Shown: piece by piece, positions 1,696 through 2,544 of the stretch | Layout of the letters: each line of letters begins with the position of its first letter | Numbering within the stretch: position 1 is the stretch's first letter | Virus record (IMG/VR): IMGVR_UViG_3300035498_000844 | Span: 1 to 64,000 of that record | Length of the DNA: 64,000 nucleotides | Origin: a virus | Lineage: Duplodnaviria; Caudoviricetes | Reading direction: 5' to 3' (one strand) | The notes under the pieces: model-generated | Told to the model about the DNA's origin: nothing | Databases searched by the model: none | Seen by the model: the letters and a program-made list of their open reading frames with translations, nothing else | Program-made: the position numbers and the translations under genes

Positions 1696-1962
1696 CTATT
1701 TTCTTACACACCATTTGCGCCATTTTTGATACCACTCTTCAAGAGTATATTTTTCATAATAATGCGCCCATTCATAATATGTTTTTTTAGCATCTTCCCA
1801 AGTCCAAATGTACTTCCACGTATTCCAATGCTTATCATGCCGCTTATACGCGCTACCTTTTGGGATTTTCGCAAGCTTATCACGTCTAAGTTTTCTGTTT
1901 AGATAATGATAATCTTCTTTTTCTTGAATAATAAAATAATTATGCTTATAAGATCGACTCAT
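1696..1962 (-). CDS. Small basic, Trp-rich hypothetical protein (MSRSYK...)
   Basis: 88-aa ORF with AGGAGG SD. Confidence 0.75.
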   Translation of the reverse strand: MSRSYKHNYFIIQEKEDYHYLNRKLRRDKLAKIPKGSAYKRHDKHWNTWKYIWTWEDAKKTYYEWAHYYEKYTLEEWYQKWRKWCVRK

Positions 1963-2075: not shown

Positions 2076-2201
2076 TTGCTAGAGTAGGATTCGAACCTAC
2101 AATTTAGGGATTTTCCTTTTAAAAAATATAATTGCTGGATAAATCTTTTTCAAGAATCCTTTTATTTATATCCCTGCGTTTGCCAATTACGCCATCTAGC
2201 A
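2076..2201 (-). ncRNA. tRNA-like RNA with a 58-nt anticodon loop
   Basis: Acceptor TGCTAGA/TCTAGCA, D arm GCGT-AATTGGCAA-ACGC, anticodon stem GGGAT/ATCCC, T arm GTAGG-TTCGAAT-CCTAC; loop 2112-2169. Confidence 0.8.
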
Positions 2202-2203
2202 AA

Positions 2204-2291
2204 TACGAGCACTGGGATTCGAACCCAGACTATGCCTTGTGAGGGTCTTCGCTTTATAAGAACTCGGCTTTAACCATTAAGCTATGCTCGC
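2204..2291 (-). tRNA. Non-canonical tRNA, possibly Ile(TAT); weak anticodon stem and long extra arm
   Basis: Acceptor GCGAGCA/TGCTCGT, D arm GCTT-AATGGTTA-AAGC, T arm CTGGG-TTCGAAT-CCCAG; loop CTTATAA closed by only about 3 pairs. Confidence 0.65.
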
Positions 2292-2294
2292 ATA

Positions 2295-2490
2295 ATCCTA
2301 CTAAAGCTTAGCACTTTATTCTTGCAGGTAGTTTTTGATGAGAATTTCGCTCATGGAAGGTTTTTTCTTTCTACGTTCTTCGGGTTTTCAATCTACTTAT
2401 CACCTTAAACAGGGCAACCCGCTTACTAAGACCTTTCAACATAACGCGCACCGACTAGTTTAAAGACTCCATTCGGACTGTCTCTTAATT
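2295..2490 (-). ncRNA. Candidate structured ncRNA leader upstream of the tRNA pair
   Basis: Follows a sigmaA promoter (about 2510-2538); no SD-led ORF; visibly GC-richer; several helices found by eye. Confidence 0.4.
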
Positions 2491-2544
2491 TTTTATAACT
2501 TATATAAATATTATATCATAATATTTTTAAAAAATCAAAAATCT

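Follow-up and report, generated by a model that had tools for sequence, protein, structure and literature searches.

A tRNA-shaped phage gene in which a folded 58-nt domain takes the place of the anticodon loop

On the minus strand near the start of a phage contig from IMG/VR (IMGVR_UViG_3300035498_000844), a 126-nt gene with the shape of a transfer RNA (tRNA) lies at positions 2076-2201, and a folded domain of 58 nt stands in the place of its anticodon loop. The window analysed is the first 64 kb of this 73.8-kb contig (completeness estimate 56%, about 30% G+C), and positions without a locus number refer to it. Read along the minus strand, the locus consists of an open reading frame (ORF) of 96 amino acids (aa), a predicted promoter, a leader of about 200 nt, tRNA-Ile(UAU), the tRNA-like gene, a basic 88-aa ORF, a lysin gene and a gene for a cREC protein. 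An earlier reading of the sequence alone (the original prediction) had placed the start of the tRNA-like gene 2 nt past another odd tRNA, and this neighbour was found to be the tRNA-Ile(UAU), which carries a long variable arm (2204-2291, minus strand).

The Rfam tRNA model (RF00005) matched the tRNA-like gene over its full length with 43.7 bits (gathering score 29; E in the window 5.6e-6), skipping 63 nt within the anticodon arm. The acceptor stem is formed by UGCUAGA (2195-2201) and UCUAGCA (2077-2083), with seven Watson-Crick pairs and the discriminator A at 2076. The D arm, GCGU-AAUUGGCAA-ACGC (2176-2192), is tRNA-Leu-like and holds G18 and G19 in its loop, the outer or anticodon stem joins GGGAU (2170-2174) to AUCCC (2107-2111), and the T arm, GUAGG-UUCGAAU-CCUAC (2084-2100), has a loop of the UUCRANY form. 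The conserved tertiary nucleotides of tRNA are present in the Rfam match, and 21 of the 21 pairs across the four stems are Watson-Crick, so that the tRNA scaffold with four perfect stems and a 58-nt loop (2169-2112) described in the original prediction was recovered on the minus strand. No 7-nt loop with U33 and a purine at position 37 is obtained from the gene, either directly or after one excision. Default ARAGORN did not call the gene, and with introns allowed it reported a tRNA-Ser(AGA) whose anticodon is interrupted by a 51-nt intron; this register is arbitrary.

The insert domain (2112-2169) begins with an A-rich part (2160-2169), followed by a hairpin (2137-2159) that was seen in the folds and reads GGAU-U-UCUU-GAAA-AAGA-UUU-AUCC, with a GNRA tetraloop at 2148-2151. 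The inner hairpin quoted in the original prediction therefore exists, and it is better read as GGAU/AUCC plus UCUU-GAAA-AAGA. Next comes C-A-G-C-A (2133-2137), the local form of a C-N-G-C-A motif in which every position but N is invariant across alignments A3, A4 and A7. The U-rich strand and purine tail (AUUAUAUUUUUUAAAAGGAAA, 2112-2132) can pair with the A-rich part in minimum-free-energy and constrained folds; the hairpin is thus flanked by A-rich 5' and U-rich 3' strands, and the purine tail (..UAAAAGGA) lies ahead of the 3' strand. Folding of the whole 126-nt RNA gave z = -2.8 against shuffles, and the insert folded alone was no stabler than its shuffles (z = -0.2). No further copy of the insert was found in the 73.8-kb contig, where only AT-rich 9-13-mers recur.

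About 50 loci were collected with the 88-aa ORF and a neighbouring ORF of about 190 aa as anchors. The same phage was present in five other assemblies (L007-L011) with the gene unchanged, indicating that the gene is not an assembly artefact; being 99.9-100% identical, these assemblies are uninformative on selection. Among the other relatives, the slot between the 96-aa and 88-aa genes varies. It holds only a tRNA-Ile of the CAU or UAU type in L012, L022 and L023, a tRNA-Ile and the ORF of about 190 aa in L013 and L019, and long arrays of ordinary tRNAs in the distant L005, L006, L043, L047 and L048. In L026, L030, L032/L035/L056/L057/L061, L036 and L068, one or two insert-bearing tRNA-shaped genes begin 0-2 nt past tRNA-Ile(UAU), and one such gene was found in L027, L029 and L033. 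These genes are 119-138 nt long, with inserts of 40-55 nt in the anticodon arm. Counted by lineage, at least five or six among the related uncultured phages have genes bearing the insertion module next to tRNA-Ile(UAU), and the fixed position across lineages suggests vertical inheritance of the unit rather than repeated insertion.

A locus in a 36.9-kb contig assigned to an Erysipelotrichaceae metagenome-assembled genome (MAG) (L061:4686-5012, JAEDOA010000004.1) carries the whole unit of tRNA-Ile, type A gene and type B gene (types described below) and scored 142.7 bits with the type A model, R1. It was the only family member among nine pattern matches in genome collections, the other eight being chance matches. 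Cultured phage records gave no match to the window region and only generic tRNA similarity to the operon of the relatives, and exact-pattern scans with the T arm and acceptor 3' strand returned nothing from viral, genome or metagenome collections.

On the basis of the loci and the family models, the insert-bearing genes of the relatives fall into type A (L026, L030, L032/L035/L056/L057/L061, L036 and L068) and type B (L026, L027, L029, the L032 group, L033/L036 and L068). The body of type A is class I, the D arm (GCUC-AGNUGGGA-GAGC) is Ala-like and no anticodon-like loop is conserved; even the UUCUAA stretch found in other members is missing from L068_A. Type B is built on tRNA-Leu and keeps a long variable arm, with the insert immediately 5' of a loop that is itself intact, C-U-N-A-A-A-A. 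Joined without the insert, the type B exons form a canonical class II tRNA-Leu(UAA); its identity to the normal tRNA-Leu(UAA) that the phage also carries is about 70%, and the two anticodon loops are the same. Position 34 of type B varies, with GAA in L032 against UAA in the near-identical L035/L056 and with CAA and AUA in L027 and L029, a pattern that does not look like a strict decoding constraint.

The inserts of the relatives share a 6-bp hairpin, N-N-N-U-U-A/U-A-A-N-N-N, capped by a GNNA tetraloop (GAUA, GUAA, GGAA, GGUA or GAAA), and about 4 nt past it the invariant C-N-G-C-A, followed in type A by a U-rich strand. The hairpin occurs as GGAUUA/UAAUCC, GAUUUA/UAAAUC, GGUUUA/UAAACC and AGUUUA/UAAACU; across eight relatives 97.9% of the cells are paired and three of the six pairs are changed on both sides, a score that was reached by none of 500 shuffles and was not approached by slid registers. 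In type A as a whole (seven distinct sequences), 97.5% of the cells are paired and 17 of the 35 pairs are changed on both sides, figures that somewhat favour the structure because the alignment was fitted to its own model. The changed pairs include the acceptor and the outer stem, the latter being CCUGG/CCAGG in most members and UCAGC/GCUGA in L068. Judged from these patterns, type A is a conserved, structured tRNA-like RNA that would be unable to decode, and since it shows compensatory changes in spite of having no anticodon-like loop, tRNA-like RNAs that lack an anticodon and bear the module appear to be a maintained class.

Several other structural readings of the insert were tried and dropped. 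An inner anticodon-like hairpin of type A (UCUUU-UUUCUAA-AGGGA, 'UCU') is absent from L068_A; pairing of C-N-G with the exon-1 strand of type B, proposed by RNAalifold, occurs in three of four lineages and not in type A; a hammerhead-like core (CUGANGA...GAAA) is not conserved across members; the 11-nt GNRA-receptor motif does not fit; and a tRNA-shaped (minihelix) insert was rejected on inspection, the hairpin being 6 bp with a 4-nt loop and no flanking acceptor-like strands. A reading of the insert as a CRISPR-repeat mimic was dropped too, as no convincing similarity is known. Within the invariant motif, G-C-A could stand for an alanine codon, or N-G-C for the anticodon of an alanine tRNA, and the type A body is Ala-like.

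The body of the window gene is type-B-like and closest to the type B gene of L026 (L026_B, L026:679-816), and L026 is also the nearest diverged relative by the 88-aa protein (63%). Its 5' part (TGCTAGATGGCGTAATTGGCAAACGC) is identical to that of L026_B (TGCCAGATGGCGGAATTGGAAGACGC) at 22 of 26 positions, its T arm is identical to that of type B in L027 and L032, and the top of its hairpin (CUUGAAAAAGAU) is nearest to the L026_B variant CUUGUGAUAAU. Relative to L026_B there are four double substitutions that keep pairing, namely acceptor pair 4:69 (U4:A69 against C4:G69), anticodon-stem pair 28:42 and two T-stem pairs (the T stem of L026_B being GUUAG/CUAAC), and no pair is broken. The architecture is type-A-like, with a place directly after tRNA-Ile, a short variable loop and no anticodon. 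In the R1 alignment the insert is collinear with that of type A, the GNRA loop, C-N-G-C-A and a U tract (U6) following in the same order; the outer stem is homologous to type A helix 3, which covaries, and the U-rich strand and purine tail correspond to type A helix 4, which is kept in seven sequences. The module is present as UCUU-GAAA-AAGA within GGAU/AUCC, then CAGCA, then the U6 tract, and its hairpin is homologous to the covarying hairpin of the relatives. Synteny agrees, with the 2-nt gap to tRNA-Ile(UAU) and a leader (2295-2500) that is 72-74% identical over about 185 nt to the sequence upstream of tRNA-Ile in L032, L036 and L056.

These results support the original prediction in part, and they extend its reading of a tRNA body with an altered decoding arm, since tRNA-like genes of related phages carry a homologue of the arm, as a conserved module, in the same place. 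The covariance alignment that it had proposed as a check shows covariation in the module hairpin and the type A bodies, and four compensated changes against L026_B in the stems of the window gene. It had also named a private degenerate insertion, with a normal tRNA in relatives, as the case that would overturn it; this case does not hold, as the module recurs in relatives, although L012, L022 and L023 have a normal tRNA only. As to the suggestion that the gene is a third independent example in this genome, the odd tRNA-like genes near tRNA-Lys (14616-14950, minus strand) lack the hairpin/C-N-G-C-A module and were not linked to it by the two family models, with which their best score is 21.6 bits.

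The favoured interpretation draws on the fold and homology of the gene, on covariation in the module and in the relatives' tRNA-like bodies, and on the absence of an anticodon register: the gene is probably a conserved, non-decoding look-alike of tRNA rather than a broken or intron-bearing tRNA. The fuller statement, that it encodes a processed, non-decoding tRNA-like non-coding RNA (ncRNA) of an undescribed phage family, is held with middling confidence. The RNA would have a tRNA-Leu-type body with a 7-bp acceptor stem, D and T arms and discriminator A, and its anticodon stem would open into a 58-nt domain made of an A-rich/U-rich helix, a GAAA-capped hairpin and a single-stranded C-A-G-C-A, the local form of the conserved insertion module borne by the tRNA-like genes 3' of tRNA-Ile(UAU) in uncultured phage relatives of about 130 kb. 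It would be transcribed from the promoter at 2538-2510 jointly with the leader RNA and tRNA-Ile, and RNase P and 3' processing enzymes would excise it as they do a tRNA. The elongated GNRA-capped arm and the exposed C-N-G-C-A would be the working part, a handle for a protein or RNA partner and not a reader of codons. As a guess, the arena might be a tRNA-centred conflict, in which the RNA would act, for example, as a decoy or ligand of a tRNA-targeting factor; such a role fits the cREC and RNA ligase genes of the phage clade, and it fits what is known at present of phage tRNAs (PMC10264068, PMC11464382).

Several observations weigh against the favoured interpretation. The hairpin top U-U-A-[GNNA]-U-A-A, invariant in the eight relatives, is absent, the window having UCUU-GAAA-AAGA, and the window hairpin contains an internal loop and is not separated from C-N-G-C-A by the 4-nt spacer. 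The gene is reduced in comparison with type B, as a decaying gene would be: GGA-CUNAAAA-UCC has become GGA-AAA-UCC, with the long variable arm gone and the anticodon loop shorter by 3-4 nt. The scores with R1 (56.2 bits) and with the type B model, R2 (61.8 bits), are the top non-training full-length matches, but they lie within 1-2 bits of ordinary tRNAs, and for this reason the gene is placed in the family by its insert alignment, its motif set and its synteny, leader included. Since the exact version occurs in one lineage only, in which all copies are identical, the argument for selection on the window copy is drawn from fairly distant homologues.

The main rival explanation, which we consider rather unlikely, is that the window copy is a recently reduced and dying type B gene, that is, an insert-bearing tRNA-Leu(UAA) paralogue that has been stripped of its variable arm and part of the anticodon loop, has no function and has not yet been deleted. 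The reduction just described and the closeness of body and hairpin top to L026_B speak for this explanation. The slot is also unstable, with only a tRNA in L012, L022 and L023, an ORF in L013 and L019, tRNA fragments in L020 and L021 and a broken tRNA in L006, and L056 has a normal tRNA-Leu(UAA) elsewhere, which makes its type B copies redundant. A decaying gene is harder to reconcile with stems that are fully Watson-Crick paired and differ from L026_B at four pairs, all compensated, or with the retention of the tertiary nucleotides and of the family order of the insert elements. Type A shows that loss of the anticodon is compatible with long-term conservation, and phage genomes seldom retain dead DNA.

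It is improbable that the gene is an intron-bearing tRNA, in which a nuclease of host or phage would remove 51-58 nt and a phage RNA ligase would join the two halves, with cREC healing the ends, to give a working tRNA. This explanation draws on type B, whose exons make a canonical tRNA-Leu(UAA) as described above and whose insert has a short repeat on either side (GGA...GGA, or AGA...AGA in L029) that varies in step with the stem sequence, on the RNA ligase (PF09414) and cREC of the clade, and on the short 'enigmatic' introns known in tRNAs of Lak megaphages (PMC6784885). For the window copy, enumeration of all splice registers gave only A-U-GGA/AGA/AAA-A-A or worse, and the type-B-like register leaves 3-4 nt instead of a 7-nt loop, in agreement with the earlier observation that no register yields Y32-U33-NNN-R37. 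No type A gene yields a tRNA by any single excision.

Searches for splicing machinery gave a similar picture. Neither tRNA-intron endonuclease (PF01974) nor RtcB (PF01139) had a match in this contig, which is 56% complete, or in three relatives that are nearly complete, and no bulge-helix-bulge (BHB) motif (3-nt bulge, 4-bp helix, 3-nt bulge) could be drawn by inspection in the window or type B sequences. Archaeal-type splicing has neither its motif nor its enzymes in these genomes, and the intron removed by a protein endonuclease and ligase, which the original prediction had offered as an alternative, is not supported for the window copy. The search that it had proposed for RNA ligase, RtcB and endonuclease genes was positive only for the ligase, a protein of the Rnl2 family (PF09414, about 410 aa) that was found in five of six related records searched and not in the 56%-complete contig. 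Self-splicing was excluded by size, 58 nt being too small (the original prediction had held the same of 51 extra nt), and by the absence of an intron or ribozyme match: no group I intron or ribozyme family reached the gathering score on the window or E <= 2 on the L026, L027, L029, L030 and L032 loci. The families checked were hammerhead, pistol, hatchet, twister, tmRNA, YrlA and SRP (signal recognition particle RNA), and the loci of the relatives gave only sub-threshold YrlA and tmRNA fragments at E <= 2. From the ligase in relatives and the cREC gene in the contig, cut-and-rejoin chemistry is predicted to be available in the clade. This route may operate on type B, for which it is conceivable because the exons make a perfect tRNA, short repeats bound the insert and the clade has a ligase and cREC; as judged from the registers, it would yield no tRNA from the window copy or from type A.

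A further explanation, which we regard as quite unlikely, treats the insert as a small selfish or mobile DNA or RNA element at the junction of anticodon stem and loop, with the hairpin and C-N-G-C-A serving its own propagation. The module does occur in at least three unrelated bodies (the Ala-like type A, the Leu-like type B and the distinct L029), and the short flanking repeats resemble target-site duplications. Against mobility, the contig yielded no second copy, alleles free of the insert were not found, nor was a nuclease or transposase gene associated with it, and the place beside tRNA-Ile(UAU) is fixed across lineages. Least likely, and barely credible, is a DNA-level signal in a dead tRNA gene, either a promoter within the insert (TTGAAA-17-TATATT, 2153-2125) or a palindromic operator, by which the 88-aa gene further 3' would be driven or controlled, since the 10/12 promoter-like site given by a consensus scan inside the insert on the right strand, and the near-perfect palindromes with TATAAT-like hexamers in the hairpins of relatives, are offset by the number of such sites in this AT-rich region (11 found against 8.6 +/- 3.2 in shuffles), by -35 and -10 elements at non-homologous positions in window and relatives, and by a flanking tRNA body that covaries as RNA.

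Full-text literature searches found no description of the module or operon, and the nearest published observation is the 'enigmatic' short introns of Lak megaphage tRNAs (Devoto et al. 2019, PMC6784885). Like those inserts, the present ones measure tens of nt, lie in the anticodon region of phage tRNA genes, are below self-splicing size, are conserved between related gut-associated uncultured phages and have no known mechanism. The Lak inserts differ in being predicted as introns of tRNAs with assignable anticodons, whereas the window copy and type A have none, and one Lak insert is tRNA-shaped, a description that sets it apart from a GNRA hairpin with C-N-G-C-A. Group I introns in anticodon loops of bacterial and phage tRNAs, for example tRNA-Leu(UAA), are likewise insertions in the anticodon arm of a tRNA-Leu-type gene, but they exceed 200 nt against 58 nt here and have a P1-P9 core that the insert lacks, no Rfam intron family matched, and they lie between U34 and A35 whereas the type B insert lies 5' of C32. 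The protein-spliced tRNA introns of archaea and eukaryotes (BHB; EndA with RtcB, or Trl1) resemble the insert in measuring tens of nt within the anticodon arm; here no BHB can be drawn, the insertion site differs from 37/38, the searches for EndA and RtcB were negative and the host is bacterial.

Phage T4 encodes two tRNA-like stable RNAs, species 1 and 2, within its tRNA operon. A second comparison is with YrlA, a bacterial tRNA mimic (PMC4201824). The favoured non-decoding RNA would share with both the tRNA-like acceptor and T modules, co-transcription or processing as a tRNA, and a long helical arm as handle; it differs from both in ending at the acceptor stem and in having no sequence or model match to them, the YrlA model reaching 28 bits against a threshold of 69 on relatives with a match that straddles the junction of two tRNA genes.

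Phage tRNA genes are now viewed as weapons against host anticodon nucleases, and nearly all of that work concerns ordinary decoders. If the favoured reading is true, some phages maintain full tRNA bodies whose decoding end has been swapped for a conserved folded domain, and the tRNA shape would have jobs beyond translation, as decoy, adaptor or carrier. Type B would then be a tractable case for how short non-self-splicing inserts are handled in tRNAs of bacterial viruses, a question that dates from the Lak megaphage report, and the family would offer annotators a concrete signature, the 'tRNA with giant anticodon loop' missed by default tRNA finders. A wider proposal, possible though doubtful, is that an uncultured Bacillota-type phage clade of about 130 kb carries a small RNA operon, made up of the leader ncRNA, tRNA-Ile(UAU) and one or two tRNA-shaped effectors that bear a dedicated and possibly mobile module, type B being a new kind of protein-processed tRNA intron. 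The effectors, which would not decode, could then serve, for example, as decoys or adaptors whose target is a tRNA-directed defence of the host, a tRNA or the cREC-ligase repair enzymes of the phage.

The contig encodes a terminase, a portal protein, a SleB-type lysin, the anaerobic NrdD/NrdG and a dUTPase, and the related phages are 130-142 kb. The host is bacterial, as indicated by the SleB-type lysin and by the L061 locus in the Erysipelotrichaceae MAG contig; the latter is also a weak hint at the host group. The source phage is of a gut or rumen type. The stand-alone cREC gene (PF20274, 629-949, minus strand, E 1.5e-22) belongs to the context only; it lies 1.1 kb from the tRNA-like gene and has homologues in the L012, L056, L057 and L004 phages. 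The cREC domain has a receiver fold, a predicted role in processing 2',3'-cyclic phosphate ends and an operon link to RNA ligases (PMC7824862).

Upstream, a consensus scan predicted the promoter TTGATT-17-TG-n-TATAAT (2510-2538, minus strand), and the same box was found upstream in L012, L022 and L068. The leader (2295-2500, minus strand), which begins AGACAGUCC.GAUGGAGUCUU.AAAC and is recognisable in L026 and L068 too, matched no Rfam family and looks like a separate conserved ncRNA of the same operon. The tRNA-Ile(UAU) was called by ARAGORN and matched in Rfam at 48.9 bits. Its variable arm is about 20 nt long (CCCU-CACA-AGG), and the same arm design was observed in the L013-L018 homologue (L013:2276-2363, 64.7 bits), while other relatives have at that place an ordinary 73-76-nt tRNA-Ile(UAU) or a CAU-type tRNA.

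The 88-aa protein (MSRSYK..., 1696-1962, minus strand) is basic and Trp/Tyr-rich and lies directly 3' of the tRNA genes in essentially every related phage sampled (about 40 loci, L004-L055); a protein of about 190 aa ending ...KSQSKRRHQWK often lies between them. Pfam and PHROG searches gave no function for the 88-aa, 96-aa and approximately 190-aa neighbour proteins and no family match for the 88-aa protein. A tiny ORF led by a Shine-Dalgarno sequence and ending ...RKFD(V/I)W was observed 3' of the type B gene, ahead of the ORF of about 190 aa (L026:817-870, L032:789-860, L068:1104-1175).

A full-length ROOL RNA (340.8 bits) adjoins the tRNA array of a related 130-kb phage (L004:7642-8249), and none was detected in the window. 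Just 5' of the 88-aa ORF homologue in L005 (4574-4645) and L006 (4923-4992), a tRNA with an initiator-type acceptor stem (CGCGGGG, C1xA72 mismatch) was found, with an 8-nt loop UUUUUGAC in L005 and with a shortened loop and a broken T stem in L006. At the corresponding place in L020 (1-230) and L021 (1-341), three consecutive units were observed, each with a T-arm-like hairpin (GGUUCGAAU/CAAUU type) and an acceptor-3'-like strand; none gave a full tRNA-model match, and they may be tRNA remnants or another remodelled tRNA-like RNA.

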